From an uncultured Clostridium sp. (lineage in GTDB: Bacteria; Bacillota; Clostridia; TANB77; CAG-508): a stretch of DNA of 64,000 nt. The stretch spans positions 22,568-86,567 of the forward strand of contig USFR01000003.1 of the NCBI GenBank assembly GCA_900553945.1, given 5' to 3'. A program made the position numbers and the translations under genes. Positions 1,947 through 35,465 of the stretch are shown one piece after another (positions within the stretch are counted from its first letter, which is position 1; each line of letters starts with the position of its first letter). The notes under the pieces are model-generated. The model was given only the letters and a program-made list of their open reading frames with translations. It made no database searches and had not been told where the DNA came from.

Positions 1947-1995
1947 AAATCTGCAAATGTAAAAAATTAAGAAAGCATTTGCAGATTTATTATAT
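1947..1995 (+). terminator. rho-independent terminator after tRNA-Gln
   Basis: Inverted repeat AAATCTGCAAATG...CATTTGCAGATTT followed by T-rich tract. Confidence 0.65.
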
Positions 1996-2127
1996 ATTAG
2001 GAAGGTTATATAAGGTTTAATGATAGAATAATTGATTAGTAAATTATAAGTGTATTGTAAAAAAGCTAAATAGTTAAAATTTTAAAATGAAGTTTCAAAT
2101 TATAAGTAATGTGAAAAGGAGAATGAT

Positions 2128-2916: not shown

Positions 2917-3647
2917 GCTTGGAAGAGTTTGTTGAAATAAATGGAGAAAAAATATATTTTTTTGTTCAAAGAAAAAGAATAAAGAATTTGAATTTAAAAG
3001 TAAATGTTGATAAAACAGTGACATTGTCAATTCCAATGAGATTGTCAATGAATGTTGCTAAAGATTTTGTTAGAAAAAAGAGCGGTTGGATAAAGAAACA
3101 GCAAAATTTTTATGAGAGAGTTTTAAAAGAAAAAGAGAATTTGAAATTTGAAAATGATGAAACTGTGTATTTGCATGGAAAAAAGTATAAGTTGGAAATT
3201 ATAAAGAATACGGTAAATGGTGTTAATGTAAAGGATGACACTATTGAGATTTATGTGAAAGAAAAGTATGCAGATAATGCTGAATACATAAGTAGAGTAT
3301 ATGATAAATGGCTTAGAGAATATGCATTAGAAGTTTTTGAAAAAGTTGTTATTGAGTATCAAAAGATCTTAAAGGATTATGGGGTTAAGATGCCTAAAAT
3401 AGAGGTTAGAAAAACAAAGGCTATATGGGGAAGTTGTATGCCAATGAAAAATAAGGTTACGTTTAATTTGAATTTGATTAAAACGCCTATGGAATGTATT
3501 GAATATGTTGTTTTGCATGAATTATCTCATTTTAAATTTCAAAATCATAGTAAGAATTTTTACAATTTTATTGCTATGTTTATGCCTGATTGGAAAGAGA
3601 GAAAGAGAATACTGGATAAAGAGTATATTGGAATAGGAAGAAAGTAA
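2910..3647 (+). CDS. YgjP-like metal-dependent hydrolase (DUF45/M48-like, HExxH)
   Basis: 245 aa. C-terminal HELSHF zinc motif and overall YgjP/SprT-like architecture. 7-nt overlap with the upstream gene. Confidence 0.75.
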   Translation: MLSLEEFVEINGEKIYFFVQRKRIKNLNLKVNVDKTVTLSIPMRLSMNVAKDFVRKKSGWIKKQQNFYERVLKEKENLKFENDETVYLHGKKYKLEIIKNTVNGVNVKDDTIEIYVKEKYADNAEYISRVYDKWLREYALEVFEKVVIEYQKILKDYGVKMPKIEVRKTKAIWGSCMPMKNKVTFNLNLIKTPMECIEYVVLHELSHFKFQNHSKNFYNFIAMFMPDWKERKRILDKEYIGIGRK

Positions 3648-3651
3648 TGTT

Positions 3652-3684
3652 AAGAATGAGTATTTTTTACTCATTCTTTTTATA
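3652..3684 (+). terminator. rho-independent terminator
   Basis: AAGAATGAGTA / TACTCATTCTT hairpin followed by TTTTT. Confidence 0.7.
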
Positions 3685-3689
3685 TTTTA

Positions 3690-3816
3690 AAAGAACATTA
3701 TATTTTATTTTTGCATTCCTTGCTAAAAGATTTTACCGCCCACTAAACTTTGTTTAGCAGGCTAGGTAAAAACTTTCAAACTGCGCGTCATTGGAAAATA
3801 AAATATAATGTTCTTT
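3690..3816. repeat. Structured palindromic intergenic element of unknown function
   Basis: Perfect 20-bp inverted repeat AAGAACATTATATTTTATTT / AAATAAAATATAATGTTCTT encloses an 87-bp core. The core has a nested palindrome (CTTGCTAAA...TTTAGCAGG). Confidence 0.4.
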
Positions 3817-3925
3817 AATAAAAAAAGAATAATATACATAGATTTGCTTTTGCTCTAAAGGTTGCTTAATTGTGCAAATTTTGTTATAATGTGTTTGATT
3901 TTTACGAATTTTGGGAGAAGATTAA

Positions 3926-4567
3926 ATGAATAATTTTATTGGAATTATAATTTCGGCAATATATATTACACTTGTTATAGTATCATCAAAGTTTGTTAAT
4001 AAATTTGGTGAAGAGGCTAGTAGAAAATATGTACATATTTTATTGTCAAATGTGTGGATCATTTATTTGTTTTTTATTGATTCAATATGGGCTGCTTGTG
4101 TTTTACCAATTGCTTTTGTTTTCATAAACTTATTATCTTATAAATTTAAATTGATAAAATCTATTGAACGTGAGAAAAATGATGGTTTAGGTACGGTATA
4201 TTATGCTGTGTCTATGTTGATTGCTTCAATTATTTCATATGGAGTTGGTTGCCCAATCGTTGGTGCATCTGGTATTTTAATTATGGGATATGGAGATGGT
4301 TTAGCTGCTATTGTTGGAAAAAAGATAAAGAGCCAAAAGTATAAAATAGGTGATACTGTAAAAAGTGTTGCGGGTTCACTAACTATGTTTATTATTAGTT
4401 TGGTGATTTCGTTTATAGTATTAAAAATTATAGGTATCAAGTGTTTATTTCTTGATGCTATTTGTATTGCTGTTATTTCAACGATTTTGGAAGCGGTTTC
4501 AATAAAAGGATTGGATAATATAACAGTTCCTGTAATTGTAACAATATTAACGTTATTGGCTGTTTAG
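3926..4567 (+). CDS. Polytopic membrane protein, CTP-dependent polyprenol/dolichol-kinase-like (CdsA-related) family
   Basis: 213 aa, multiple TM segments. YGDGLAAIVGKK...KSVAGSL motif resembles the CTP-transferase/polyprenol kinase family. Adjacent to dxs, likely co-transcribed. Confidence 0.5.
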   Translation: MNNFIGIIISAIYITLVIVSSKFVNKFGEEASRKYVHILLSNVWIIYLFFIDSIWAACVLPIAFVFINLLSYKFKLIKSIEREKNDGLGTVYYAVSMLIASIISYGVGCPIVGASGILIMGYGDGLAAIVGKKIKSQKYKIGDTVKSVAGSLTMFIISLVISFIVLKIIGIKCLFLDAICIAVISTILEAVSIKGLDNITVPVIVTILTLLAV

Positions 4568-4576
4568 GAGGATTAT

Positions 4577-6433
4577 ATGATTTTTGATAAGGTAAATATG
4601 CCTGAGGATGTAAAAAAATTAAATATTGAAGAAAAAAAAGAACTTTCAGGAGAGATAAGAGAAAAAATTCTTGATGTTGTGTCTAAGAATGGTGGACATC
4701 TTGCTTCAAATTTAGGTGTTGTTGAGCTTACAATTGCTCTTCATTCTGTTTTTAATATGCCTAAAGATAAGATAGTATGGGATGTTGGACATCAGACTTA
4801 TGTTCATAAAATGCTAACTGGAAGAAAAGATAAATTTGATTCTTTAAGAAAAATGGATGGACTTGCTGGATTTCCTAGAACATCGGAATCTGAATATGAT
4901 AGTTTTGATACAGGTCATAGTAGTACATCAATTTCTGTTGCTTTAGGTATGGCAAGAGCAAGAGATATATTGCATGAAGATAATAAAGTTATTGCTGTGA
5001 TTGGTGATGGTGCAATGACTGGTGGAATGGCGTTAGAGGCTTTAAATGATGCTGGTATTAGTAAAACAAATTTGATTGTTGTTTTAAATGATAATGAAAT
5101 GAGTATTTCTAAAAATACTGGTGGACTTGCTTTAATGCTTTCAAAATTAAGAACGAAGAAGCTTTATATAAATTCTAATGTTTCTGTAAAGAATTTTATT
5201 AGAAAGATCCCTGTTGTTGGAGAGTGGATTGTTAAATTAGTTGTTAAATTAAAAAATAGTATTAAACAATTAGTTATTCCAAAGATGTTTTTTGAGAATA
5301 TTGGTTTTAGATATTTAGGACCTGTAGATGGCCATAATATTGAGGATTTAGAAAGTATATTTAATATAAGTAAAGAACTTGAAGGACCTGTTCTAATTCA
5401 TGTTGTGACTAAAAAAGGGAAAGGTTATAAATATGCTGAGGAGAATCCTAATAAATATCATTCTACTTCTCCTTTTAATATAGAAACAGGTGAAAAGAAA
5501 AAAGGATCTGCTAAAGATTATTCTAAGGTTATGGGAGAAAAGTTAGTAAAACTTGCTGAGAAAGATGAAAAAATTGTAGCTGTTACAGCTGCTATGGAAG
5601 ATGGTACAGGGCTTTCAGAATTTGCTAAAAAATTTCCAAATAGATTTTTTGATGTTGAAATTGCAGAACAACATGCACTGGGTATGGTTGCGGGAATGGC
5701 TAAGAATGGCTTGAAACCTGTAATACCAATTTATTCGTCATTTTTACAAAGAGGATATGACCAGCTAATTCATGATATTGCTCTTCAAAAGTTGCCGGTT
5801 GTAGTATGTGTTGACAGAGCGGGAATTGTTGGAAATGATGGGGATACTCATCAAGGAATATTGGATTTATCTTTCTTAAATACTGTTCCTAATTTTACTG
5901 TAATGGCTCCAAAGAATTTTAGAGAATTGGATGATATGCTTGAATTTGCAGTAAATTTTGATGGACCAGTGGCTATTAGATATCCAAGAGGCTCAGAGAG
6001 TTCATATGATTTTGGAGAGAAAATTGAAAAAATTGAATTAGGAAAATCAGAATTGTTGCAACCAGGTGAAGATGTTACAATTTTAGCAATTGGTAAGATG
6101 GTTTCTTATGCAATGGAAGTTGCAGAGAAATTGAAAGAAAATGAAATTAATGCAGAAGTTATTAATGCTAGATTTATGAAGCCTTTTGATGAAGAAAATA
6201 TTTTAAAATCAATTTCAAAAACTAAGAAAATTGCTACTATGGAGGATAATATTTCTGCTACTGGATTTGCAAGTAGAGTTGATGTGGTAATTGCAAACAA
6301 TGATTGCAAGGTTTTAAATTTAGGATATCCAGAAGATTTTATAAAACATGGTTCAGTTTCTGAGATTGAAAATAAATATGAATTAGACGTTGAAAGTGTT
6401 ACAAAGAAAATAGTTGAGTTTGTTGGAAAATAA
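4577..6433 (+). CDS. dxs: 1-deoxy-D-xylulose-5-phosphate synthase
   Basis: 618 aa. TPP-binding GDGAMTGG motif, transketolase-like pyrimidine and C-terminal domains. Strong RBS AGGAGG. Confidence 0.95.
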   Translation: MIFDKVNMPEDVKKLNIEEKKELSGEIREKILDVVSKNGGHLASNLGVVELTIALHSVFNMPKDKIVWDVGHQTYVHKMLTGRKDKFDSLRKMDGLAGFPRTSESEYDSFDTGHSSTSISVALGMARARDILHEDNKVIAVIGDGAMTGGMALEALNDAGISKTNLIVVLNDNEMSISKNTGGLALMLSKLRTKKLYINSNVSVKNFIRKIPVVGEWIVKLVVKLKNSIKQLVIPKMFFENIGFRYLGPVDGHNIEDLESIFNISKELEGPVLIHVVTKKGKGYKYAEENPNKYHSTSPFNIETGEKKKGSAKDYSKVMGEKLVKLAEKDEKIVAVTAAMEDGTGLSEFAKKFPNRFFDVEIAEQHALGMVAGMAKNGLKPVIPIYSSFLQRGYDQLIHDIALQKLPVVVCVDRAGIVGNDGDTHQGILDLSFLNTVPNFTVMAPKNFRELDDMLEFAVNFDGPVAIRYPRGSESSYDFGEKIEKIELGKSELLQPGEDVTILAIGKMVSYAMEVAEKLKENEINAEVINARFMKPFDEENILKSISKTKKIATMEDNISATGFASRVDVVIANNDCKVLNLGYPEDFIKHGSVSEIENKYELDVESVTKKIVEFVGK

Positions 6434-6434
6434 A

Positions 6435-7199
6435 ATGATAGATGAAAATGATTTATTAATTGCAAAGGTTTTAGATAAGAAGAAAATTTGCAATTCTAAA
6501 AATAAAATTACATATACAGATTTTTTAAATGAAAAAGAGCAACGTGTTATTGAGAAAAATGTGAAACTTGAAAATGCTTTTTTCTATGGAGTGAATGAAA
6601 ATGCTGATAGAAAAATATTAGTTTTTTATCCTGAAAAGTTAACAGAAGAACTTGTTAGAAAATCACTTAAAAGTGTGCTTTCTGGAATTAGGATTATTCT
6701 TAAAAATGATCAAATAGGAAATTATGAACATAAAAATTATTTGTCTGCACTTATAAAAATTGGAATTGATAGAGGAAAAATAGGTGATATATTAGTTGAT
6801 GATTATGGTGCTGATATAATTGCTTTTGACATGAATAAAGAATTTATAATCCAGTCGTTGAGCGAACTTACTCGTTTTAGAAAAGCAAATATTGACATTA
6901 TTCCTATAGATGATATTAAGCAAAAAATTGATAGATTTGAAGAAAGTACGATTATTGTTTCTAGCATGAGAATTGATAATATTGTTGCTGAACTTGCAGG
7001 ATGTTCTAGAACAAATGCAGATGAGTATATAAACAGCGAAAAAGTATTTGTTAATTATGAGACGGTTTTAAAGGTTTCAAAGACTATTTTTGAAGGTGAT
7101 ATAGTAACTATTAGAGGCAAAGGAAAGTTTAGAATTGACGGTTTGGTCAGAAATACAAGAAATAATCGTTTTGTTATCAAAGTCAACAAATATGCTTAA
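6435..7199 (+). CDS. YlmH-like RNA-binding protein with C-terminal S4 domain
   Basis: About 255 aa. C-terminal S4 fold (IDNIVAELAGCSRTNADEYINSEKVFVN). ATG at 6435 is 2 nt after the dxs stop. An in-frame TTG at 6414 is the alternative start. Confidence 0.55.
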   Translation: MIDENDLLIAKVLDKKKICNSKNKITYTDFLNEKEQRVIEKNVKLENAFFYGVNENADRKILVFYPEKLTEELVRKSLKSVLSGIRIILKNDQIGNYEHKNYLSALIKIGIDRGKIGDILVDDYGADIIAFDMNKEFIIQSLSELTRFRKANIDIIPIDDIKQKIDRFEESTIIVSSMRIDNIVAELAGCSRTNADEYINSEKVFVNYETVLKVSKTIFEGDIVTIRGKGKFRIDGLVRNTRNNRFVIKVNKYA

Positions 7200-10924: not shown

Positions 10925-11001
10925 GCGCCTTTAGCTCAGTTGGTCAGAGCAACCGGCTCATAACCGGTGGGTCCAAGGTTCGAATCCTTGAAGGCGCACC
11001 A
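10925..11001 (+). tRNA. tRNA with CAU anticodon (most similar to tRNA-Ile2/lysidine type; could be elongator Met)
   Basis: 77 nt GCGCCUUUAGCUCAGUUGGUCAGAGCAACCGGCUCAUAACCGG...GGCGCACCA. Cloverleaf with anticodon loop CUCAUAA. Body closely resembles Firmicutes tRNA-Ile(LAU). Confidence 0.8.
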
Positions 11002-11005
11002 TCTT

Positions 11006-11091
11006 GGGTAGGTGGTCGAGTGGTTAATGGCACCAGACTGTAAATCTGGCGACGAGAGTCTACGATGGTTCGAATCCATCCCTGCCCACCA
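11006..11091 (+). tRNA. tRNA-Tyr (anticodon GUA)
   Basis: 86 nt class II tRNA. Acceptor GGGTAGG/CCTGCCC with a G-U pair, anticodon loop CUGUAAA, long variable arm, CCA encoded. Confidence 0.9.
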
Positions 11092-11177
11092 AGACAAGTT
11101 TTCATCGAACTTTTTGAAAGTCTTGATATAACTTAATTCCAAGACAACAAAAATTTTGATGAACACAAAAATCTTAA

Positions 11178-11206
11178 ACCGTTTCAAAAGAAACGGTCTT
11201 TTTTTG
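11178..11206 (+). terminator. rho-independent terminator after tRNA pair
   Basis: AACCGTTTC/GAAACGGT hairpin followed by TTTTTTT. Confidence 0.75.
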
Positions 11207-11207
11207 A

Positions 11208-11510
<303 letters not shown>

Positions 11511-11637
11511 CAAGTCAAAAAAATTGATGTTTTAGAGTTTTTAAAAATTGTACTATATTGATTTATTAATTATGTTTAAAAGAAAAAATAGAGATAGTTA
11601 AAACAATAAATAAAAACTTTAAAGTGTCAATAGCTAA

Positions 11638-13525
<1,888 letters not shown>

Positions 13526-13538
13526 AAAATTTTAATAA

Positions 13539-13943
13539 ATGGAGAAATTGAAAATGGAAAATAAAAAATTAAAAGAAAATAATATTGATAATAAATATGG
13601 AATTGAATATAAAAAAGTTGGAGATTATTATATGCCTAACTTGGTATTAGAAAAAGAAAAAATTATATTAAATAAATATGGAAGAATGAGACTAAAATTT
13701 TTAAAAGAAAATAAGAAAGCAGAATATATGATAATGTTTACAAAAGGAATATTGAATAAACATTTAAAAGAGATTCAAGAAACAGCACAAACAAGAGTTA
13801 ACATTATAATTGAACAATTAAAACAACAAAATAATTTAACAGAAGAAATGAAAAATACAGACCAACTTTATTGGATTAGCATGATGAATAATTTTAAAAA
13901 AACAGCAGAAGAAATTATATTAAATGAACTAATATATGTGTAA
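13539..13943 (+). CDS. TnpV-like transposon-encoded protein
   Basis: About 130 aa. YYMPNL...YGRMRLKFL...NKHLKEIQETA...ELIYV pattern typical of the TnpV family found beside serine recombinases in clostridial elements. Start is 13539 or 13554. Confidence 0.65.
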   Translation: MEKLKMENKKLKENNIDNKYGIEYKKVGDYYMPNLVLEKEKIILNKYGRMRLKFLKENKKAEYMIMFTKGILNKHLKEIQETAQTRVNIIIEQLKQQNNLTEEMKNTDQLYWISMMNNFKKTAEEIILNELIYV

Positions 13944-13949
13944 GAAATT

Positions 13950-14100
13950 ACAGGTAGGAGCAAACAGACAAATGTATTGCCAAATTTAATGTCTATAAGT
14001 ATAGCGAGCATAAGTTTTGTATTGCCACAAAACCGACAGCTTAAGCTGAAATGGGAAAAATCTTCCCCTATAACCCCTACCTTATGAAATAAAAAGTTAA
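13950..14100 (+). other. Candidate oriT region
   Basis: Intergenic, just upstream of mobC-relaxase. Direct repeat GTATTGCCA(A/C)AA x2. Inverted pair GGTAGG...CCTACC. Short hairpin GGGAAAAATCTTCCC. Confidence 0.3.
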
Positions 14101-14197
14101 AAAAATAGATTAAAAATTGTATAAGGAATTAAAAGATTTTAAGAAAAATTTTATAAAAAAATAGAGCAAAAATTTATGAAAAAGGAAGTGAAAAATT

Positions 14198-14485
14198 ATG
14201 AGAAATAGAACAATAGGAATTAATGTTAGAGTGAGTGAAAATGAAAAGAAAAAATTACAAAGGAATGCTAAAAAGAGCAACTTGAATTTATCATCTTATT
14301 TAAGAAAAGCAGGATTACAAAAAGAAATTTATTCAATACCAGATGAAGAACTTCGTAAAATTTACAATGGAATTGTTGAACTAAAAAATGAGTTTTCTTA
14401 TATGAATGATGAAGAAATAAAAGAGAAAATAACAAAAATGCAAAGTGATTTTCTAGATATTTATAATTATAAAAAACGGAGATGA
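14198..14485 (+). CDS. MobC-like relaxosome accessory protein (ribbon-helix-helix)
   Basis: 95 aa. LSSYLRKAGL motif characteristic of the MobC family. Directly precedes the relaxase. Confidence 0.65.
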   Translation: MRNRTIGINVRVSENEKKKLQRNAKKSNLNLSSYLRKAGLQKEIYSIPDEELRKIYNGIVELKNEFSYMNDEEIKEKITKMQSDFLDIYNYKKRR

Positions 14486-14490
14486 TGTAG

Positions 14491-15861
14491 ATGGCAACAA
14501 CGAAAATATGGGCAATTAAAGATAGTATATCACGAGTAATAAGCTATGCAAAAAATCCAGAAAAGACAACATTTTCTGATTTGAAACAAGTATTAAAATA
14601 TGCAGAAAATGAAGAAAAGACTATTGATAATAATGAAAAAACTATGTATGTAACAGGAGTAAATTGTAATGCACAAACAGCCTATGAAGAAATGATAACA
14701 GTACAAAATAGATTTGATAAGACCACAGGAAATGTTGCATATCACGCATACCAAAGTTTTAAGACAGGAGAAGTATCGCCAGAATTAGCACACAAAATTG
14801 GAGTAGAACTTGCAGAAAAAATGTGGGGCGAATATCAAGTAGTAGTTGCAACACATTTTAATACAGGCACATATCATAATCATTTTGTAGTAAATTCCGT
14901 TAATATGTTTACAGGTAAAAAGTTTAATTGTAACAAAGGAGCATATTATCATTTCAGAGAGTTATCAGATAATCTATGCAGAGAATATGGTCTAACAGTT
15001 ATTGAAAAGCCAACAGGAAAAACACCAAGAAGTATATATTTTGCAGAAAAACGAGGAGAACCAACAAAGTATAATGTAATAAGACAAGCTATTGATGAAA
15101 CAATGGAAATGTGTATAAATTACGGGCAGTTTAAAAAGATAATGTTAAAAAAGGGTTATATAATCAATGATGAGTACAGCAGAAAATACCCAACAATTCG
15201 CTCAATAAATGATAAAAAAGCAGTAAGAATGTATCATTTAGGAGAAGAATATTTACCAAAGAACATTGCAAACAAAGTTGAACACAACCCTTATTATTAT
15301 CAAGATAGATATATGGAATTTATACATCCTAAAAAGAAAAAGCAGAGATTCAAAGTTTATAAATATAAAGGCAAATTCAAAGATATTAGTAAAATGAGTG
15401 GAATTGATGTGCTATTTCTACTGCTATTTCATTTATTAGGATTACTACCAAAACGAGAAAACTATAAACCACTATCTTCAGAAATGAAACAAGAAATAAG
15501 AAAAATGGAACGATATTCTAATGAAATTAGACTTATTGTACGCGAAAAACTAAAAATAACAGAAGATGTAAAAAGCTATATTACACAGACTGAAAAAGAT
15601 ATTGATAGTGTTACTAATTTAAGACAAAAATACAGAAATAAGCTAAGAAATTGTAAAGATGATAACTTAATAGAAGAATATAAAGAAAAGCAAAATGAAT
15701 GCACTACAATGCTAAATAAGTATAGAAAGAATCTAAAAATAGCTAATTGGATTTTAGAAGATACACCAAAAGTTAAAGAAGTTATCAAAATTGAAATGCA
15801 AATGAAAAATGGGCAAGAAGATATTACTAAAACAAAGAAAAAAGACAGAAACGCAAGATAG
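14491..15861 (+). CDS. Mobilization relaxase (MobA/VirD2-like)
   Basis: 456 aa. N-terminal relaxase domain with 3-His motif HFNTGTYHNHFVVN and an upstream tyrosine region. C-terminal coiled-coil-rich region. Confidence 0.8.
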   Translation: MATTKIWAIKDSISRVISYAKNPEKTTFSDLKQVLKYAENEEKTIDNNEKTMYVTGVNCNAQTAYEEMITVQNRFDKTTGNVAYHAYQSFKTGEVSPELAHKIGVELAEKMWGEYQVVVATHFNTGTYHNHFVVNSVNMFTGKKFNCNKGAYYHFRELSDNLCREYGLTVIEKPTGKTPRSIYFAEKRGEPTKYNVIRQAIDETMEMCINYGQFKKIMLKKGYIINDEYSRKYPTIRSINDKKAVRMYHLGEEYLPKNIANKVEHNPYYYQDRYMEFIHPKKKKQRFKVYKYKGKFKDISKMSGIDVLFLLLFHLLGLLPKRENYKPLSSEMKQEIRKMERYSNEIRLIVREKLKITEDVKSYITQTEKDIDSVTNLRQKYRNKLRNCKDDNLIEEYKEKQNECTTMLNKYRKNLKIANWILEDTPKVKEVIKIEMQMKNGQEDITKTKKKDRNAR

Positions 15862-18653: not shown

Positions 18654-19040
18654 ATGAGAGAAAACAAATTAACAATATTTATTAACAAACCTGTAAAAGA
18701 AGTATTTGATTATTCGTTAGAGTCAAATAATGTTCCAAAGTGGATTATTCAAATTAAAGAAGAAATTCCAGAGGAAAGACCAGTTAAATTAGGAACACAA
18801 TTGAGAAATATTGGAGTAAATAGTAAAGAATGGAATAAATATGAGATGATTGAATTTGAACCACCAAAGACATTTACATTAAAAAAATTAAATGGTGATT
18901 ATTTTGTGAAATATACTTGTTCTGAAAAGGATGGAGGAACTGAATTTGAATATTTTGAATGGGCGGAAAATGGTGATTTAGATGCATTAATGGAAATGTC
19001 TGCATTAGAATTATTAAAAGAGCAAATCGAAAATATGTAG
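18654..19040 (+). CDS. SRPBCC (START/Bet v1-like) family protein
   Basis: 128 aa. Weak family resemblance only. Confidence 0.4.
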   Translation: MRENKLTIFINKPVKEVFDYSLESNNVPKWIIQIKEEIPEERPVKLGTQLRNIGVNSKEWNKYEMIEFEPPKTFTLKKLNGDYFVKYTCSEKDGGTEFEYFEWAENGDLDALMEMSALELLKEQIENM

Positions 19041-19060
19041 ATGATATAGGAGAGTGAAAG

Positions 19061-20086
19061 ATGAGTGATATAGTAAAACAAAATGAAGTATTTGGAAACT
19101 ACTACAATAGAATAAATTTATTGATTTTAAAGACAAAACAAAATGTTATAAAAAATATAAATTATGAGATGGTAGAATTATATTATGCTATAGGCTCTAC
19201 GATTAATGAATTAATTGAGGAATATCATTTAGAAGCTTCTCAAAATAAAATATTAAAGTCTTTTTCAGAAAAATTGACACGAGAATTTGGAGAAGGTTAT
19301 AGTGTACCTAATTTGAAATTAATGAAAAAATTTTATTTAACTTATAAAGGTGGTTACACACTGTGTAACCAATTAAGTTGGAGCCATAATCGTTTAATAA
19401 TGAATATAGATAATGAGGCTAAAAGAAATTTTTATTTGGAAGAAACTATAAAATCAAATTGGAGTGTTAGACAATTAGAAAGACAAATAAACAGTTTTTA
19501 TTATGAAAGGCTTTTATCAACAAGTGAAGAACATAAAGAAGAAGTAAAAGATGAAATAAATATTTTAGAGAAGAAGGAGAAAGTGCAAGATTTTATTAAA
19601 GATCCTTATGTTTTAGAATTTTTAGACATTAAAGATAGAAGATTTTTAGAAAAAGACCTAGAATCTAATTTACTTGAACATATTTCAGAGTTTTTATTAG
19701 AATTAGGTAGAGGATTTTCGTTTGTGGCAAGACAGAAAAGAATAGATGTAGATGGAGATAATTTTTATATTGATTTAGTATTTTACAATTATGTACTAAA
19801 GTGTTTCGTTTTAATTGATTTGAAATTAGACAAGCTAACCCATCAAGATATTGGACAAATGGATTTTTATGTTAGATACTATGATAATGAAATAAAGTCA
19901 GAAGATGATAATCCGACAATAGGAATAATACTATGCTCAGATAAAAAAGATACAATAGTAAAATATTCTGTTCTTAATGATAATAAGAATTTATTTGCAT
20001 CAAAATATCAATTATATTTACCAACAGAAGAAGAATTAGCGAGAGAAATTGAAAAACAAAAGGAAGAATTTGAAGATAAAGAATAG
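19061..20086 (+). CDS. DUF1016 (YhcG-like) PDDEXK-nuclease-domain protein
   Basis: 341 aa. Conserved N-terminal region (NYEMVELYYAIGS...) and C-terminal nuclease core FYIDLVFYN...CFVLIDLK, typical of the YhcG family. Confidence 0.7.
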   Translation: MSDIVKQNEVFGNYYNRINLLILKTKQNVIKNINYEMVELYYAIGSTINELIEEYHLEASQNKILKSFSEKLTREFGEGYSVPNLKLMKKFYLTYKGGYTLCNQLSWSHNRLIMNIDNEAKRNFYLEETIKSNWSVRQLERQINSFYYERLLSTSEEHKEEVKDEINILEKKEKVQDFIKDPYVLEFLDIKDRRFLEKDLESNLLEHISEFLLELGRGFSFVARQKRIDVDGDNFYIDLVFYNYVLKCFVLIDLKLDKLTHQDIGQMDFYVRYYDNEIKSEDDNPTIGIILCSDKKDTIVKYSVLNDNKNLFASKYQLYLPTEEELAREIEKQKEEFEDKE

Positions 20087-20141
20087 AGTGGTTCCACAGT
20101 GTGGAATCAGAAGATAGAAATAATATGGAGTATATATTAAT

Positions 20142-21755
20142 ATGGTAATAGATAAAATAAAAGTGAAGAATTATAAAATATTTCAAGAAAAAACCATACA
20201 TTTAAATGATAATGTAAATATTTTTGTGGGTGAAAATGATGCAGGAAAAAGTACTATTCTTGAGATTGTAAATTTAATAACAACAGGAAAAATTAATGGC
20301 TATTTTATAGATAGACAAATTACAGCTAATTTTTTTAATTATGAAGTAAGAAAGAATTATATAGAAAACATAAAAAGTGGAAAATATGCTGAATTGCCAG
20401 AAATAATGATAGAAGCTTATTGTAAAAATAAAGAAGATTCTGAATTTAGAGGAACAAATAATACATTGGGAGAAGACTGTCCAGGAATAGCATTTTATTA
20501 TACATTTAATCAAGATAATGCGGATATTTATAAGAGAAAATTAAAAGAAGGTGAGATACTTGATATACCACTGGAATTTTACAAAATTGAATTTATTGGC
20601 TTTCATGGAAATAGTATTACTAGCAAGTATTTACCATTTAAAGTTGCAACAATTGATGCTTCAAAAAGAGACTATAATAATTTGTTAAATAGATTTGTTT
20701 CAGAAAATATGGAGCAATTTTTATCAGATGAAGATAAAGTTATGTTAAGGTCTGAATATAGAAAAAGCATAATGAGTTTTAATAATATACCAAATATACA
20801 AGCATTAAATTCAAAATTGAAAGAAAATGTAAAATTGAATGAAAAAAGTATAAGTATTAATTTAAAAGATGAGAATGTTGATAATTGGAAAGAAGATATT
20901 GAGATAGCAGTTAATAATATACCGTTTGATAATATAGGATTTGGAAGTAGAAATTCAATGAAGATAGAATTAGCATTGCAAAATAATAAAGAGACAGTTA
21001 GTACACTTATTATTGAAGAACCTGAAAACAATTTATCTTATACTAATATGGCTAAACTAATTTTTAAAATTGAAGAAAACAAAGATAAGCAAATTTTTAT
21101 TGCAACACATAGTAGTTATATAGCAAATAAATTAGATTTACAAAATATACACATAGTACATAATGGAAATGTGAATAGTTTACAGAATTTAGATGATGAT
21201 ACAAGAGAATACTTTAAAAAATTACCAGGTTTTGATACCTTAAGAGTTATTTTAGCGAACAAAGTAATTTTAGTTGAAGGACCAGCAGATGACTTGATTA
21301 TACAAAGGGCATATAAAGATAAGTACCACAAATTACCGATTAATGATGGAATAGATATTATTGCAGTAAATGCATTAGCATTTAAGAGATACTGTGATAT
21401 TGCTATATTAGTAAATAAAGAAATAACTTTAGTTACAGATAATGATGGTAATATAAATGAAAATATTACACAAAAATATGATAAATATATAGGAAAAAGA
21501 AATATAAGAATTTGTTATGAAAAAGATGAAACTTTAAATACATTAGAGCCAAGTATTTTAGCAGCCAATACTATAAATGGCGAGATTTTGGATGATTTCA
21601 TTGATGGAATATCAAAAAATGGATCAATGAAAGGAAAAACAAGAGAAGAAATAAATAACTTTATGGAAAATAATAAAACAGAATGGAGTATGAGGATTTT
21701 TGATTATGAAAAAAATATAAGATATCCTCAATATATATTAGATGCAATCGAATAA
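20142..21755 (+). CDS. OLD-family ATP-dependent endonuclease (ABC ATPase + TOPRIM), GajA-like
   Basis: 537 aa. N-terminal Walker A FVGENDAGKST. C-terminal TOPRIM (VILVEGPADDLII...DIIAVN). Confidence 0.8.
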   Translation: MVIDKIKVKNYKIFQEKTIHLNDNVNIFVGENDAGKSTILEIVNLITTGKINGYFIDRQITANFFNYEVRKNYIENIKSGKYAELPEIMIEAYCKNKEDSEFRGTNNTLGEDCPGIAFYYTFNQDNADIYKRKLKEGEILDIPLEFYKIEFIGFHGNSITSKYLPFKVATIDASKRDYNNLLNRFVSENMEQFLSDEDKVMLRSEYRKSIMSFNNIPNIQALNSKLKENVKLNEKSISINLKDENVDNWKEDIEIAVNNIPFDNIGFGSRNSMKIELALQNNKETVSTLIIEEPENNLSYTNMAKLIFKIEENKDKQIFIATHSSYIANKLDLQNIHIVHNGNVNSLQNLDDDTREYFKKLPGFDTLRVILANKVILVEGPADDLIIQRAYKDKYHKLPINDGIDIIAVNALAFKRYCDIAILVNKEITLVTDNDGNINENITQKYDKYIGKRNIRICYEKDETLNTLEPSILAANTINGEILDDFIDGISKNGSMKGKTREEINNFMENNKTEWSMRIFDYEKNIRYPQYILDAIE

Positions 21756-22866
21756 TGCTGTTATTATGGCTGCTGCAGGAGCTGGAAAAACGCATGACAT
21801 TTGCAAAGAAGTAATAGAAAATGCAAAAACAACGAACAAAAAGATTTTAATTACAACTTATACTAATAAAGGTATTGATTCAATTAAAAAGGAATACAAA
21901 AAACAAAATAATGGTGTAATAGATAAGAATGTTATTATTTTGTCATGGTTTCAATTTTTATTGAGAGAGTTAGTAAAACCATATCAAAGTTCAATATTAA
22001 AAGGAATTAATATAATAAACTCAATAGATTTCAATCATCAATATGGATATATTAATTTTAGTTCTAGAGGAACACCTAAACACTATATACTTTCTAATAA
22101 TAATATATTGTCTAATACTGTTAGTGAATTTGCAATAGATAGTAATGTAAATTCAAATAGTAAAGTAATACAAAGATTAGAAGATATTTATTCCCATATT
22201 TATATTGATGAAATACAAGATTTGGCTGGCGAAGATATAGAGATATTAAACTTACTTTTTAATTCTAAAATAAGTGTACAATGTGTTGGTGATGTTAAGC
22301 AATCAACATATACTACATATAATGCTAAAAAGAATAAAAAAGTAACAGGAATATATTTTATAGATTATTTTAAACAATTAGAAATAAATGGCATAATAAC
22401 ATTAAGATTCAATAATAAAACTAGAAGATTTGGAAAGGAAATATGTGAGTTTTCAAATAGTATATTTGATGACAACAATAAAATAGAATCAGATACAATA
22501 TATAACAAAGAAAATCAAGGAGTATATCTTTTAGATAAAAAAGATTTTGAACAGTACTTTAAAATGTATAAACCTCAAGTTTTAAAATTTGATGCAAGAA
22601 CAAAAACAGATTATGATTCATTAAATTTTGGACAATGCAAAGGAATGACATTTGATAGAGTTGCAATATTTCCAAATAAAAAATATAAGGAATTTTTGCA
22701 GAAGAGAACAAGTTTAGACTCTCCTTGTAAATACTATGTTTCCGCTACTAGAGCAAAATATAGTATAGTATTTGTAGTAGAAAAATTATTTGAAAATGAT
22801 AGGTTTAAATATATGAATATAAAACTAGAAGATAGTAGTATAAAAGTATCAAAATATATGGTATAA
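21742..22866 (+). CDS. Compact UvrD-like helicase, GajB-like
   Basis: 374 aa. Motifs: I MAAAGAGKT; II IYIDEIQD; VGDVKQSTY; C-terminal GMTFDRVAIF and YVSATRAK. 14-nt overlap with the upstream OLD-family gene. Confidence 0.75.
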   Translation: MQSNNAVIMAAAGAGKTHDICKEVIENAKTTNKKILITTYTNKGIDSIKKEYKKQNNGVIDKNVIILSWFQFLLRELVKPYQSSILKGINIINSIDFNHQYGYINFSSRGTPKHYILSNNNILSNTVSEFAIDSNVNSNSKVIQRLEDIYSHIYIDEIQDLAGEDIEILNLLFNSKISVQCVGDVKQSTYTTYNAKKNKKVTGIYFIDYFKQLEINGIITLRFNNKTRRFGKEICEFSNSIFDDNNKIESDTIYNKENQGVYLLDKKDFEQYFKMYKPQVLKFDARTKTDYDSLNFGQCKGMTFDRVAIFPNKKYKEFLQKRTSLDSPCKYYVSATRAKYSIVFVVEKLFENDRFKYMNIKLEDSSIKVSKYMV

Positions 22867-23237
22867 GAAAATTGTTGAGAAAAAAATCAGAGAATTTTAT
22901 TAAAAAGTAAAATTTTCCTTGCTAAATACAAAAATTTATGTTAAATTAAAAACATAGTGATAGACAAAAAAACCAATATGGGTATACATATCTTTGAAAC
23001 TATTGCTATAACTGATTTTGAAACGGATAATAAGGTGCTTTTGTGCGAGACATTTTTCGAATACGTCCTCCGCTAACGCACCAAACACATAACTTTGGTT
23101 ATGTGTTTTTTTATGCTTAAAGATAGATAAAAAAGTTACAAGGTTTATTAGAATAATTGTTTTTATGCTGATTTTGTGATATAAGTAAAATGCAAAATTT
23201 AAAATATAATAAAAAATACTGAAAGGTATGAGAAGAA

Positions 23238-24146
23238 ATGGAAGAATCTTTACTTGAATTTTATTTGAATAAATTAGAATATAGTAATAAACCCGAGTTT
23301 CTAAATAAATATTTGAATGTTCCCTGTTTAAAGAGATTGAAGAAGATATGCTATTTTTGTGGAATGGATTATGCGTCAAAGCATATATATAATTTTAAAG
23401 AAAAGATTACAAGATATGATCATTCGTTAACAGTTGCTTTGCTAACTTGGAAATGTACAAAAGATAAAAAAGCAACTTTGGCAGGATTATTTCATGATAT
23501 TGCTACTCCTTGTTTTTCACATGTAATAGATTATATGAATAAGGATTATGCTAATCAAGAAAGTACAGAAGAGAATACGGAAAAAATATTAAAAAATGAT
23601 ACGTATTTGAGAAAGTGTTTGAAGGAAGATGATATTGAAATTGAAAATATTATTGATTTTAAGCAATATAATATCGTGGATAATAATCGACCCAAAGTAT
23701 GTGCAGATAGATTAGACGGAGTAATACTTACAGGAATTGCTTGGACAAAAAATGTGGATTATGAAGTTATAGATAATATTATAAATGATATAGAAATTTT
23801 TGATAATGAAATAGGATTTAAGACGAAAAGTGTTGCAAATAAAGTTTTAGAAATTAGTGAGAGTATTGATCTTTATTGTCATTCTAATGAGGATAATTAT
23901 ATGATGGAACTTTTAGCAGCTATAACTAAATATGGAATTGATAATAAATATATTACATATGAAGATTTATATGTGCTTAATGAAGAGGATTTAATTTACA
24001 GGTTAAAGAGCGTTAATGATTCAAAATTACTTGAGTATTTTGATAAATTTGAAAATATAACATTAGATGAAATCCCAAGTATTTGTTTACCAAATATAAA
24101 GATAAGAAGTTTAAATCCTTTAGTGCAAGGAAAGAGAATAAAGTAA
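23238..24146 (+). CDS. HD-domain phosphohydrolase
   Basis: 302 aa. H...HD...D metal-binding set (YDHSL, LFHDIATP, CADRLDG). Confidence 0.7.
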   Translation: MEESLLEFYLNKLEYSNKPEFLNKYLNVPCLKRLKKICYFCGMDYASKHIYNFKEKITRYDHSLTVALLTWKCTKDKKATLAGLFHDIATPCFSHVIDYMNKDYANQESTEENTEKILKNDTYLRKCLKEDDIEIENIIDFKQYNIVDNNRPKVCADRLDGVILTGIAWTKNVDYEVIDNIINDIEIFDNEIGFKTKSVANKVLEISESIDLYCHSNEDNYMMELLAAITKYGIDNKYITYEDLYVLNEEDLIYRLKSVNDSKLLEYFDKFENITLDEIPSICLPNIKIRSLNPLVQGKRIK

Positions 24147-24170
24147 AAATTTAAAAATAAAATATTGAGA

Positions 24171-24213
24171 AAGCTAGAAATCGATTTTAAGAAATCGTTT
24201 TCTAGCTTTTTTT
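24171..24213 (+). terminator. rho-independent terminator
   Basis: AAGCTAGAAATCGATTTTAAGAAATCGTTTTCTAGCTT nested hairpin followed by TTTTT. Confidence 0.7.
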
Positions 24214-24239
24214 CATAAATTATAGTGAAGGGAGAAAAA

Positions 24240-25604
24240 ATGAAAAAATATAAGAAAAGTTTAATTATAGTTATAATTTTAGGCTGTTTATTGATTTTAA
24301 AGTGTTTAGCAGGAATAGTTATAAAAAATGAAAATTTAAATAATTCGATAGATGAAATGCAGAATGTAATTAATAATGAAATACAATTTTATGAAATGAC
24401 AGAAGAAGAAATTATAGAATTGAAGACTGCAGAGATTATTGAGCGAAACGAAATTGATGAACAAAATCTAGAACAAGAGGTAGAAGATGAAGGTTTCGAA
24501 TTGCAAGGAGATATTGCATACGAGGGTGATAAGGCTAGAAGTTGGAATGTGACATTGGGTAATTATAAAGGTTTAACTTATTATTCTCAAATTGATAATA
24601 GATGGAGAAATAAAAGATATTCATCTACAGGAAATGTATCTCAAACAATTGGTTCAAGTGGTTGTGGACCAACGAGTGCTAGTATGATTGTAACTGCTTG
24701 CAAAGGTGCAATAACTCCTGATGTAATGTCTGATTTGTTTGTGAAATATGGTTACAGAAGTGCTAATAATGGAACTTATTGGAGTGCATTTAGAGCAATA
24801 GCTGATGAATTTGACATTGGGTATTCTGAAACAACTAATTTTCAAAGAGCAATTGAGTTATTAAGAAATAATAATTATGTTGTGGCTTCTGTAGGAAATG
24901 GATTATTTACAACTGGAGGACATATTATTGTTTTAACTGGAATAGATGGAGATACTATAAAAATATATGATCCTTATTTATATGCTGGAAAATTTGAAAC
25001 AAGTACAAGAAGAGGAAAAGTAACAGTTGTAGGAAATACAGTGTATGTATCTGTACAAAATTTTAGAAATTATGCGAACGCAAAAGGTTTCTTTTGTTAT
25101 AAGCATGATGAAAATGTTCAAGAAAATAATATTAAGCCAGTAGTTGTACAGCCATATACAAGGTATGTTAAAGCAAATGGCGGTTTAAATATTAGAAGTT
25201 CACCTAATGGAAATAGAATTGGAGCAATAAGAAATGGCGAACAAATAACTGTTTATGAAACCTCAGGTAATTGGTCAAGAATAGGTGCTGGAAAGTGGGT
25301 TAGATCTGATTATTTAGTTAGTTCAACATCTAATTATACGAATAAGGAGAAAGGTGAAAAATATTCAGTAGGTGGATATAGAGTTACATCTAGTGTCCTT
25401 AATGTGAGAAATGGCCCTTCAACGAATTATAGTAGTAAAAGGTATTATCAACTTTCTTCTAATGCAAGACTTCAAAATCGTAGATTGGGTGGAGAATGTA
25501 ATGGATATAGAAGAGGTGTTGTTTTTACAGTTTCAAAAATTATAAACAATTGGGGATATTCACCAAGTGGTTGGGTATGTTTGGATTATTGTTATAAATA
25601 TTAA
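24240..25604 (+). CDS. Secreted C39-like papain-fold cysteine peptidase with C-terminal SH3b domains (putative cell-wall hydrolase)
   Basis: Signal peptide/TM at N-terminus. GSSGCGPTSASM catalytic-Cys region and GGHIIVLTG His region. C-terminal SH3_3-like repeats (GLNIRSSPNG...). Confidence 0.65.
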   Translation: MKKYKKSLIIVIILGCLLILKCLAGIVIKNENLNNSIDEMQNVINNEIQFYEMTEEEIIELKTAEIIERNEIDEQNLEQEVEDEGFELQGDIAYEGDKARSWNVTLGNYKGLTYYSQIDNRWRNKRYSSTGNVSQTIGSSGCGPTSASMIVTACKGAITPDVMSDLFVKYGYRSANNGTYWSAFRAIADEFDIGYSETTNFQRAIELLRNNNYVVASVGNGLFTTGGHIIVLTGIDGDTIKIYDPYLYAGKFETSTRRGKVTVVGNTVYVSVQNFRNYANAKGFFCYKHDENVQENNIKPVVVQPYTRYVKANGGLNIRSSPNGNRIGAIRNGEQITVYETSGNWSRIGAGKWVRSDYLVSSTSNYTNKEKGEKYSVGGYRVTSSVLNVRNGPSTNYSSKRYYQLSSNARLQNRRLGGECNGYRRGVVFTVSKIINNWGYSPSGWVCLDYCYKY

Positions 25605-25643: not shown

Positions 25644-27530
25644 GTGTGCGACAGGCATGTCGTTTAGCTAATCGGTGAGAGCCCGTATTGGAGGTATATA
25701 TCGCCAACCAATTAGAGAAACACAAGCTATCCATCGTGAGGTGGAAGTGGAGGAAGTGTGTATCAAAATCATGGCTCGATGTACAAAAACTTGATATTAA
25801 GGCTATGCAAGAGGGGAAGACTGCACAACAAGTCAAAGCCCAAAAGATATACGTAACCTTGTATAGTAAATCAAGCGAGTAAATGAGGAAAGTTAAACGG
25901 CTTACCCTGTGAGGTCTTGTGAGCATAGAGTAGTTAGGAAACGACGAGGAGTACATAGAATGAAGTATGGTCGAAAAAGGTTTATCACAAGAAGTCAGCA
26001 GAGGTCATAGTAGGAAAAATTTTTTTTTCGAAGGACTGAACAATTTGTAGTGTTTTCACTACCGAAAAATTTAGTGATAGATAATAGTTAGAATGTGTTA
26101 ATGAGGAGAGTATGAGCGTATCTCAGAGGGTTACTCAAAATCCAATATTTTATCTATCTACGGAAAGAAAAAGAGGAAACAGATATGGAACTTTTAGAAG
26201 AAATTCTTAATCAAAACAATTTAAACAAGGCATACAAGAAAGTTGTAGCAAACAAAGGTGAAGCAGGAGCTGATGGGATAACAGTAGAAGAAGAATTTGA
26301 TTACTTAAAAGAAAACAAAGACAGAATAATAAACCAAATAAGAAAAAGAAAATATAAACCGCAACCTGTGAAAAGAGTCCAAATACCAAAAGAAAATGGT
26401 AAAATGAGAAATCTAGGAATACCAACAGTGACAGATAGAATAATACAACAAGCAATATCTCAAGTAATAAGCCCAATTTTTGAAAAGCAATTTAATGATA
26501 ATAGTTTTGGATTTAGACCTAATAGAAGCTGTGAACAAGCAGTAATTAGGGCATTGGAATATTTGAATGATGGATATGAATGGATAGTGGACATTGACTT
26601 AGAAAAATTTTTCGACACAGTAAATCAAGATAAATTAATAACAATAATAGGAAAGACAATAGCTGATGGAGATGTGGTGTCATTAATTAGAAAATATCTA
26701 AGTGCAGGAGTAATGGAAAAAGGAATAGTTAAAGCAACAACAGTAGGAACACCACAAGGAGGAAATCTAAGCCCATTATTAAGTAATATAATGTTAAATG
26801 AACTAGATAAAGAACTTGAGGCAAGAGGACTAAACTTTGTAAGATATGCTGATGACTGTATAATACTTGTTAAAAGTGAAAAAGCAGCAAACCGAGTTTT
26901 GGCATCAATAACAAAATTTATTGAAAAGAAACTAGGATTAAAAGTAAATGCAGAAAAGAGCAAGGTAACAAGACCAACACAAACGAAATACTTAGGATTT
27001 AGTTTTTGGAAAAGTCCAAAAGGACAATGGAAACCAAAACCACACCTAAAATCATATCAAAAACTAGTAAGAAAACTAAAACAGTTAACCGATAGAAGTT
27101 TGAGTATTAGCTTAGATAATAGAATTAAGAAAATAAATTATGTTGTTAGAGGTTGGGTAAATTACTTTAGAATAGCAAATATGAAAAATAAAATCACTGA
27201 AATTGATGAACACCTAAGGGTAAGAATAAGAGTTATAATTTGGAAACAATGGAAAAAGATACGTAAGAAATGTGAAAGCTTACAAAAATTAGGAGTCCCA
27301 TTTGAAATAGCATTTAATTGTGCAAATACAAGAAAAGGTTATTATCAAATATGCAAAACTAGATATATACAGTTTGCAATAAATAATGAAAGATTAAGAA
27401 AAAGAGGTCTAGTATTCCTACTAGACCAATATGAAAAAGTTCATATTTAATATAAATTGAACCGCCACTTGCGAGAACCGCTTGAGTGGTGGTGAGAGAG
27501 GGGAAAAACACACTAAGTGTTATCCTCTAC
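25644..27530 (+). mobile_element. Group II intron (bacterial class C-like)
   Basis: 5' GUGUGCG/GUGCG at 25644-25650, directly after a terminator U-tract. About 540 bp of structured RNA comes before the IEP ORF in domain IV. A domain V/VI-like hairpin region follows the ORF (27455-27530), ending ...TATCCTCTAC. Confidence 0.8.
26185..27450 (+). CDS. Group II intron reverse transcriptase/maturase (no endonuclease domain)
   Basis: 421 aa. RT motifs RNLGIPTVTDRIIQQA, FGFRPNRSCEQA, GTPQGGNLSPLLSN and YADD. Maturase X domain RGWVNYF. Ends without an HNH/En domain. Confidence 0.9.
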   Translation: MELLEEILNQNNLNKAYKKVVANKGEAGADGITVEEEFDYLKENKDRIINQIRKRKYKPQPVKRVQIPKENGKMRNLGIPTVTDRIIQQAISQVISPIFEKQFNDNSFGFRPNRSCEQAVIRALEYLNDGYEWIVDIDLEKFFDTVNQDKLITIIGKTIADGDVVSLIRKYLSAGVMEKGIVKATTVGTPQGGNLSPLLSNIMLNELDKELEARGLNFVRYADDCIILVKSEKAANRVLASITKFIEKKLGLKVNAEKSKVTRPTQTKYLGFSFWKSPKGQWKPKPHLKSYQKLVRKLKQLTDRSLSISLDNRIKKINYVVRGWVNYFRIANMKNKITEIDEHLRVRIRVIIWKQWKKIRKKCESLQKLGVPFEIAFNCANTRKGYYQICKTRYIQFAINNERLRKRGLVFLLDQYEKVHI

Positions 27531-35235: not shown

Positions 35236-35465
35236 AAAAAATACATGGTAGGTGAGGCCAGTATAGGGATACGGGTTACTACCGCAAACTAGTGGAGACA
35301 CTACGCGCCGGTTAACAGAGAATGTCGATTCAAGGCATGCTTTAATGTGATTTCATTGCCCTATAACGCTGAAGCTTGTACGGTATATGAAATGTGGTTT
35401 AGGTTAATAATTATATTAATTTAAGTTCTTATTACTGTGCAAGCACGTAATAAGAACTTTTTTTG
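35236..35465 (+). promoter_or_regulatory. M-box (ykoK) Mg2+ riboswitch with terminator expression platform
   Basis: GGTAGGTGAGGC...GTATAGGGATACG...TACCGCAAA...GTTAACAGA...TATAACGCTGAAGCT conserved M-box blocks. Followed by terminator AAGTTCTTATTACGTG.../...CACGTAATAAGAACTT + TTTTTT. mgtE lies downstream. Confidence 0.8.

Follow-up and report, generated by a model that had tools for sequence, protein, structure and literature searches.

Positions 20142-22866 of a 64,000-nucleotide (nt) stretch of DNA from an uncultured gut Clostridium (contig USFR01000003.1; the whole stretch is called the window here) carry two overlapping genes, one for an OLD-family protein with a Toprim nuclease domain and one for a small helicase of the UvrD type. 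We conclude, with a probability of roughly 0.8, that this pair forms a two-gene Gabija-type (class 2 OLD) defense module that belongs to a compact subfamily and rides as cargo close to a mobilizable element. The pair is an ordinary member of a large known Gabija subfamily and not a new system. Standard defense finders would call it Gabija, as one of thousands of compact copies. This very common form, present in Escherichia coli, on plasmids, and in many gut Bacillota, is built without subdomain 2B of the helicase and without about 43 residues of the nuclease domain. To our knowledge, all structural and biochemical understanding of Gabija stems from the long form found in Bacillus cereus.

The features of the pair, with lengths in amino acids (aa), are as follows. 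Both genes are defined by the list of open reading frames (ORFs), Pfam and PADLOC matches, and AlphaFold2 (AF2) models compared by using Foldseek.

20142..21755, + strand: OLD-family (GajA-type) protein, 537 aa
21742..22866, + strand: compact superfamily 1A (SF1A)/UvrD-like helicase (GajB-type), 374 aa
21249..21752, + strand: Toprim nuclease region of the OLD protein, residues ~370-537, defined by the catalytic residue set
21742..21755, + strand: 14-nt overlap of the OLD stop and helicase start (helicase ATG at 21742, OLD TAA at 21753-21755)

Both gene lengths and the overlap had been reported in an earlier reading made from the DNA letters alone (the sequence-only reading), and the coordinates agree exactly with the ORF list. 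The overlap suggests that translation of the OLD protein and of the helicase is coupled.

Assignment of the pair to Gabija

Matches above the curated Pfam cut-offs were found for both proteins: AAA_15 (2.7e-15), AAA_21, and OLD-like_TOPRIM (8.9e-11) for the OLD protein, and UvrD-helicase (3.1e-14) and AAA_19 for its partner. Among the PADLOC models, GajA PDLC00102 aligns with OLD residues 1-537 over positions 1-530 of its 532 (E=7.6e-166), and GajB models PDLC00140 (1.6e-87) and PDLC00148 (~1e-87) cover the full length of the helicase. The OLD/Toprim and UvrD homology proposed from the sequence is thus found far beyond chance. Longer PADLOC GajA and GajB models give weaker and partial matches (1e-25 to 1e-37). 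The two best GajB profiles are themselves just 365 and 369 positions long, which indicates that the short form is a Gabija sub-type already cataloged by PADLOC. The same best sub-models are returned for short pairs from E. coli, from a Pseudomonas plasmid, and from a second clade of relatives described below. NCBIfam holds no specific model for either the OLD protein or the helicase.

Searches of all Protein Data Bank (PDB) sequences with phmmer and with family hidden Markov models (HMMs) never reached the B. cereus GajA and GajB chains (BcGajA and BcGajB), even at E<=10. The matches were instead to the class 1 OLD protein of Thermus scotoductus (TsOLD; PDB 6P74), to the Rad50, RecF, PtuA, and AriA heads, and to PcrA, Rep, and UvrD. 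A comparison of folds was therefore needed. The AF2 model of the OLD protein (predicted local distance difference test, pLDDT, of 83) finds GajA chains 8u7i_A (7e-18) and 8sm3_A (2.5e-17, 15% identity) ahead of TsOLD 6p74 (3.7e-15, 18% identity). The helicase model, which is a compact and confident fold (pLDDT 89.4), ranks GajB chain 8tk1_F (2.3e-14, 19% identity) above UvrD, PcrA, and Rep, and the whole GajB chain 8sm3_B can be aligned with it across 493 columns. The suggestion that the pair is a minimal Gabija variant is borne out by this agreement between the PADLOC assignment and the best structural matches.

Class 2 OLD, or Gabija, systems are defined by a gene for a UvrD/PcrA/Rep-like superfamily 1 (SF1) helicase that lies immediately downstream from the OLD gene and often overlaps it (Schiltz 2019; Doron 2018). 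The class 2 traits found in the window pair are an adjoining and overlapping SF1 helicase gene, an intact DExQD box, and a full two-metal Toprim set. The plan of four subdomains (1A, 1B, 2A, and 2B) seen in the solved B. cereus GajB is not matched, as 2B is absent. That plan is a trait of the reference GajB and not of the family as delimited by PADLOC.

Related systems were also considered. A stand-alone class 1 OLD protein was ruled out, given that the helicase partner is always present. Class 3 OLD systems (the retron Eco8 type, with an adjoining retron reverse transcriptase and noncoding RNA), PARIS (with AriB as a separate Toprim protein), and Septu (with the HNH protein PtuB as partner) were ruled out as well: the ATPase and Toprim domains are fused here, and the partner is a helicase. 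The matches to the AriA and PtuA models are weak and confined to the ATPase half of the OLD protein. The sole reverse transcriptase nearby (26185-27450) is that of a group II intron and is not conserved beside the pair.

Architecture of the two proteins

The OLD protein has an intact ATP-binding cassette (ABC) nucleotide site, a dimerization insert, and a complete two-metal Toprim site. The two sequences singled out in the sequence-only reading, the Walker A GENDAGKST and the Toprim ILVEGPADD, occupy residues 30-38 (with K36) and 375-383 (with the Toprim glutamate E379). Together with K36, the Walker B residues E292/E293 and the H-loop H323 of the N-terminal ATPase are invariant in 38 homologs. 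The Toprim catalytic set consists of E379, D383, the DxD residues D433/D435, T467/E469, and K512, and these seven nuclease residues are invariant or conservatively replaced in 38 homologs (position 383 is D or E). A stretch of four helices at residues ~178-229, modeled with low confidence, matches the dimerization insert of GajA and TsOLD. The Toprim domain is followed in the AF2 model by a helical region of ~70 aa, with about five helices, that carries the catalytic lysine.

For comparison with other OLD proteins we relied on published residue numbers (PMC8136825, PMC6755086, PMC7049728). The BcGajA numbering was checked on clean gene fragments, where H320, E379, D432/D434, D511, and K541 were reproduced. 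The segment that links DxD to the metal-B site is 34 aa long in the window protein, compared with 77 in BcGajA, 51 in the OLD protein of Burkholderia pseudomallei (BpOLD), and 47 in TsOLD. The window protein is therefore without ~43 aa that BcGajA has at this place, and its total length of 537 aa is like that of class 1 proteins. In the model, Toprim alpha3 (438-444) leads into beta4 (455-459) without an intervening helix, so that the “Insert 3” helix of class 2 OLD proteins appears to be absent, as in class 1, and the insert as a whole absent or short.

The partner consists of an SF1A helicase core that retains every motif for NTPase activity and translocation. Motifs I-VI, which had been recognized from the sequence, were all located: I (AGAGKT, 12), Ia (TYTN, 39), II (DEIQD, 156), III (GDVKQ, 183), IV (TRRF, 227), V (KGMTF, 300), and VI (VSATRA, 333). 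They are invariant or nearly so in 50 homologs. Four cysteines, C21, C181, C235, and C299, two of them in 1A and two in 2A, vary little or not at all among 50 members of the short helicase family, and they might form a metal or redox site. The protein begins with MQSNNAVIMAAAGAGKT, and just 9-11 residues precede motif I, where 9 had been counted before. This short N-terminus is no special trait of the window protein, as the adenine-binding element at the N-terminus of UvrD is missing from BcGajB too (PMC10681800).

The length difference of ~120 aa from a typical GajB that had been noted earlier is correct when measured against the 494-aa B. cereus reference (PMC10681800), and canonical relatives of BcGajB are uniformly 493-503 aa. 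To locate the difference, we compared motif-to-motif distances in the window helicase, a canonical-type GajB, and the short type from an E. coli plasmid. Motif anchors were used because a MAFFT alignment of long and short helicases was unreliable between motifs III and V. A homolog search with a rebuilt BcGajA fragment returned fragments only, and the long-form reference was therefore a 509-aa GajB rebuilt from locus L084, in which GajA shares 59% identity with BcGajA. This locus (positions 3693-6976 of a metagenome contig) is a decayed canonical-type Gabija in which frameshifts have broken up both genes, leaving pieces of 264 and 294 aa for GajA and of 150 and 329 aa for GajB. The distances, in residues, are listed below.

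N-terminus to I: window 11; L084 26; E. coli short type 9
I to Ia: window 27; L084 29; E. coli short type 22
Ia to II (holds 1B): window 117; L084 116; E. coli short type 107
II to III: window 27; L084 28; E. coli short type 27
III to IV: window 44; L084 33; E. coli short type 45
IV to V (holds 2B): window 73; L084 207; E. coli short type 69
V to VI: window 33; L084 27; E. coli short type 38
VI to end: window 41; L084 42; E. coli short type 22

Almost the entire gap in length to the long GajB is the loss of subdomain 2B. In BcGajB, Ncore (1A) comprises residues 1-72 and 156-222, Nacc (1B) residues 73-155, and Ccore (2A) residues 223-313 and 417-494, and Cacc (2B, residues 314-416) is inserted between strands beta13 and beta14 (Oh et al., PMC10681800). 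Where BcGajB inserts this 103-aa subdomain, the window model has 10 residues (283-292) that link strands 279-282 and 293-295. The window helicase thus consists of subdomains 1A, 1B (at full size), and 2A, without 2B. In the literature searched, we found no paper that describes a GajB without 2B as such, and the compact architecture has, as far as we searched, not been described structurally before.

Distribution and genomic setting

The helicase had been called unusually short in the sequence-only reading, a description that does not hold within its own subfamily, where 340-410 aa is the rule. Almost all of the 120 best homologs, the most distant at 44% identity, have 370-390 aa, and homologs down to ~25% identity are 340-410 aa. 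A profile search of 1.84 billion cluster representatives gave 476 clusters at E<=1e-30, and the full-length proteins in the top 150 are all 340-410 aa. The possibility of an unseen frameshift, raised at the same time as a refuting condition, is rejected, as homologs keep the same length.

In 77 of 78 reference-genome loci, the gene immediately upstream of the helicase, on the same strand, encodes an OLD protein; the exception is cut by a contig end. An OLD gene also directly precedes the helicase in all 25 matching IMG/VR viral contigs. Two clades can be distinguished. Clade 1 (37-97% identity) has median lengths of 541 aa for the OLD protein and 380 aa for the helicase, with gene overlaps of 14, 23, 8, or 17 nt; an overlap of 8-23 nt is kept in 40 of its 41 loci. 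Clade 2 (23-30% identity) has lengths of 526 and 374 aa, and all 29 of its loci share a 16-nt overlap. The hosts are mainly Bacillota, with scattered representatives in Bacteroidales, Spirochaetales, Melainabacteria, and one methanogenic archaeon. The closest copy, 97% identical at the protein level, is locus L002 in a metagenome-assembled genome of a gut Clostridium.

A tblastn search with the helicase also reached 1,786 plasmids, mostly of Klebsiella and E. coli, on which a gene for a 520-521-aa protein overlaps that for a 340-aa helicase. RefSeq names the E. coli short pair only “ATP-dependent nuclease” or “AAA family ATPase” and “helicase UvrD.” It occurs in 769 of 5,426 complete E. coli genomes (14%), and 780 of 790 copies are plasmid-borne. 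These copies adjoin vapBC and a gene that matches PADLOC Tmn (E=1.5e-294). On IncF/ColV plasmids, as in L080 (positions 1-5011, from E. coli plasmid p1ColV5155) and L082, the order is tmn, vapBC, the 521-aa OLD gene, and the 340-aa helicase gene. This is exactly the tmn-VapBC-Gabija arrangement described for the plasmid leading region by Wu et al. (bioRxiv 10.1101/2022.08.21.504612). The same authors reported that the Gabija system of E. coli ECOR49 gives ~1e5-fold protection against lambda, which is abolished by mutation of the ATPase, the Toprim domain, or the helicase (10.1101/2022.08.21.504612).

A Pseudomonas aeruginosa megaplasmid (L081, 2344-6612) carries a short pair of 553 + 385 aa, in which the OLD protein shares 31% and the helicase 27% identity with its window counterpart. 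The neighbors of this pair are a gene for a Shedu nuclease and the resistance cluster tmexCD-toprJ. The helicase box of PA14 Gabija reads DESQ, compared with DEVQD in this short plasmid helicase. Across Bacillota, Proteobacteria, plasmids, and prophage-like contigs, the OLD protein and helicase are strictly co-inherited. Short-type pairs thus stand in defense or mobile settings, beside tmn and vapBC on E. coli plasmids and beside Shedu on the Pseudomonas plasmid; in the window, the setting is a nuclease of PADLOC family PDC-S02 and a relaxase/recombinase backbone. The neighboring features are as follows.

10925-10998 and 11006-11088, + strand: two tRNA genes
12089-13525, + strand: serine recombinase, mobilizable-element backbone
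13539-13943, + strand: TnpV, mobilizable-element backbone
14198-14485, + strand: NikA-like protein, mobilizable-element backbone
14491-15861, + strand: MobA/VirD2 relaxase, mobilizable-element backbone
19061..20086, + strand: YhcG-like PDDEXK nuclease (Pfam YhcG_C 2.3e-59, DUF1016_N; PADLOC PDC-S02 6.5e-128)
20092..20106, no strand assigned: perfect 15-nt palindrome TTCCACAGTGTGGAA, in the 55-nt spacer 5' of the OLD start
23083..23108, + strand: terminator-like hairpin and T run, 217 nt past the helicase stop
23238-24146, + strand: HD-domain protein (Pfam HD 1.5e-6; no PADLOC match), just past the terminator
24225-25604, + strand: secreted-looking protein with Peptidase_C39_2 and bacterial SH3 domains, putative cell-wall hydrolase, flanked by the HD gene and the intron
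25730-25900 and 25974-26036, + strand: group II intron RNA domains D1-D4 (Rfam)
26185-27450, + strand: group II intron reverse transcriptase/maturase ORF

The backbone at 10925-15861 is similar to that of a Tn4451-like mobilizable transposon or of an integrative mobilizable element, and metabolic cargo comes after it, upstream of the pair. A 4.0-kb block (19048-23084) that contains the YhcG-like nuclease, the OLD protein, the helicase, and 217 nt downstream, and whose shared DNA stops at 23083-23085, where the terminator-like hairpin begins, is common to the window, L001, and L002 at 89-95% DNA identity. The flanks of the three copies differ, so within this lineage the whole 4-kb block travels together. 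A megablast search of 19000-24200 against plasmids and phages gave no match. An M-box (magnesium) riboswitch further downstream, at 35237-35392 on the + strand, scores 96 bits against a gathering score of 44.

The hairpin at 23083..23108 is the sole terminator-like site within 18900-24300, and the transcription unit of the pair probably ends there. The palindrome TTCCACAGTGTGGAA is kept at the same position in L001 and L002, and its L001 copy extends over 21 nt. It is not followed by a T run and could serve as an operator or form an RNA hairpin. A scan for sigma-70 promoters was uninformative in this AT-rich DNA, with 51 matches compared with 46.7 expected.

Alternatives, mechanism, and relation to known systems

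Several other explanations were weighed. The pair might be an OLD-helicase module that resembles Gabija in gene order only, having evolved separately or diverged so deeply that it acts differently, for example as an unregulated translocase that feeds a non-specific, class-1-like OLD exonuclease and serves mainly in competition between mobile elements. Profile searches that give no link to BcGajA or BcGajB would fit such a module, as would the fact that the best sequence match of the OLD protein is class 1 TsOLD, the class-1-sized distance of 158 aa from the Toprim glutamate to the C-terminus (151 in TsOLD, 199 in BcGajA), the absence of helicase 2B, and the location of relatives in plasmid leading regions. 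Nevertheless, PADLOC GajA and GajB models cover both proteins end to end, with even the longer models at 1e-25 to 1e-37, and the top structural matches are GajA and GajB chains. In addition, K512 and the TxE residues are class-2-like, whereas TsOLD has SxE and an arginine, and the neighboring helicase gene that is the defining trait of class 2 is present. We therefore regard this explanation as unlikely.

It is less probable still that the upstream YhcG-like nuclease works with the pair in a three-gene system. The idea arises from the shared block with L001 and L002, the spacing of just 55 nt between the YhcG and OLD genes, and the membership of YhcG in a PADLOC family of defense candidates. 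No YhcG gene is found beside the pair in ~75 other genome loci, nor in the plasmid and viral loci examined, and the intergenic palindrome may separate two transcription units. The YhcG-like gene is probably a separate defense-candidate gene rather than a core part, and both it and the HD-domain gene were rejected as core components because neither is conserved beside the pair. We give hardly any weight to the view that the helicase is a truncated or frameshifted remnant of a ~500-aa GajB, or that the pair is a housekeeping repair module. Although the protein is 120 aa shorter than BcGajB (PMC10681800) and decayed Gabija loci such as L084 do exist, truncation is refuted by a length of 340-410 aa kept across hundreds of clusters; the conserved motifs, the confident compact model, and the lack of further helicase-like coding sequence between the helicase and the terminator point the same way. 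A housekeeping role is ill suited to a patchy, mobile distribution on plasmids and viral contigs, and universal, syntenic presence in a clade is not seen.

Assignment of the pair to a compact Gabija subfamily must also be held against several facts that weaken it. Identity to the characterized B. cereus proteins is only ~15-19% by structural alignment, and 24% over the core from Walker B to DxD. The family HMMs miss BcGajA and BcGajB in the PDB, and TsOLD is structurally almost as close as GajA. The pair and its close relatives are known from sequence and models, and the literature on phage protection concerns the systems of B. cereus, P. aeruginosa PA14, and E. coli ECOR49. ECOR49 Gabija may be of the short type, but its published K35/H317 fits L080 (K37, H314, H317) only partly. 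Furthermore, both the helicase 2B and the long Toprim insert of the reference are missing, and therefore assembly, trigger, and nuclease specificity may differ from those of B. cereus Gabija.

If the window pair is a Gabija module, its action can be pictured by analogy with the B. cereus system. The reference assembly there is a GajA tetramer plus GajB, in a 4:4 complex. The analogy draws on two studies (PMC10781630, PMC8136825) and on a preprint by Cheng et al. The OLD protein would oligomerize through its insert, and the helicase would dock on it through 1B, at about residues 69-149; in the solved complex, GajB touches GajA through this subdomain (PMC10781630). Nucleotide bound to the ATPase would restrain the nuclease until infection depletes nucleotides, exposes unprotected DNA ends, or does both. 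Once triggered, the Toprim site may nick or cleave DNA and DNA ends may stimulate the helicase NTPase, with the predicted outcome that replication of a phage or a foreign plasmid is blocked.

The absence of 2B bears on how such a module might be controlled. Deletion of 2B from Rep activates the monomer. Rotation of this subdomain regulates activity in Rep, UvrD, and BcGajB (PMC10781630), and with 2B absent, control of this kind cannot apply to the window helicase. From the activation of Rep by removal of 2B and the natural absence of 2B here, we infer that the helicase alone is probably not self-inhibited and that control would be exerted through the OLD partner. Such a helicase would be predicted to unwind DNA as a monomer, whereas BcGajB shows no unwinding. 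Models of Gabija regulation that rest on 2B rotation, or on the missing surfaces, are therefore not transferable to compact systems without testing.

A stronger proposal, that a helicase without 2B and an OLD protein without the insert make the compact subfamily a mechanistically distinct “minimal Gabija,” is in our view tentative and more doubtful than the assignment itself. If it were true, assembly could depart from the 4:4 B. cereus complex, and the helicase might be an uninhibited translocase regulated solely via the OLD ATPase. Such systems could also evade inhibitors such as Gad1, which wraps the canonical Gabija complex. The compact form would then be the more relevant model for enterobacterial plasmids and gut Bacillota, where it is common.

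The closest characterized system is that of B. cereus VD045, with GajA of 578 aa and GajB of 494 aa (PDB 8SM3, 8U7I, and 8TK1). As in that system, a gene for an OLD ABC-ATPase/Toprim protein stands ahead of a gene for an SF1A helicase that overlaps or abuts it. The window OLD protein and BcGajA are collinear to within one residue over the stretch that runs from the N-terminus as far as DxD (K36/K35, H323/H320, E379/E379, D433/D432), and the window Toprim set is collinear with BcGajA E379/E383/D432/D434/D511/K541 (PMC8136825). The four-helix dimerization insert is shared with BcGajA, and all motifs, the short N-terminus, and the full 1B that contacts GajA are shared with BcGajB. Unlike their counterparts, the window helicase is without the 103-aa Cacc/2B and the window OLD protein is ~43 aa shorter between DxD and metal-B.

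Class 1 OLD proteins, represented by TsOLD and phage P2 Old, offer a second comparison. TsOLD is the best sequence-level PDB match of the window protein and is similar in size (528 compared with 537 aa); both have an aspartate four residues after the Toprim glutamate (D381 in TsOLD, D383 in the window), and in both the Insert-3 helix appears to be lacking. The old gene of class 1 stands alone, however, whereas the window family always has a helicase partner. TsOLD has SxE, uses an arginine, and lacks the helical domain (PMC7049728), whereas the window protein has TxE, the invariant K512, and about five C-terminal helices, as in class 2. The class 2 proteins of B. pseudomallei and Xanthomonas campestris (PDB 6NK8), known from their catalytic regions, have a tandem and often overlapping helicase gene. 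The window set is collinear with BpOLD E400/E404/D455/D457/T506/E508/K562 (PMC6755086), and the protein is more compact, with 34 rather than 51 aa from DxD to metal-B and 43 rather than 54 aa from metal-B to the lysine.

The short “Gabija” of enterobacterial IncF/ColV plasmids (521 + 340 aa) shares the compact architecture, the manner of overlap, and the pattern of motif spacing with the window pair. It differs in its proteobacterial host and plasmid leading region, in a helicase C-terminus of 22 rather than 41 aa after motif VI, and in sequence, as its OLD protein and helicase are 24% and 22% identical to those of the window. Despite this distance, its best PADLOC sub-models, matched over the full length, are GajA PDLC00102/00098 and GajB PDLC00148/00140.

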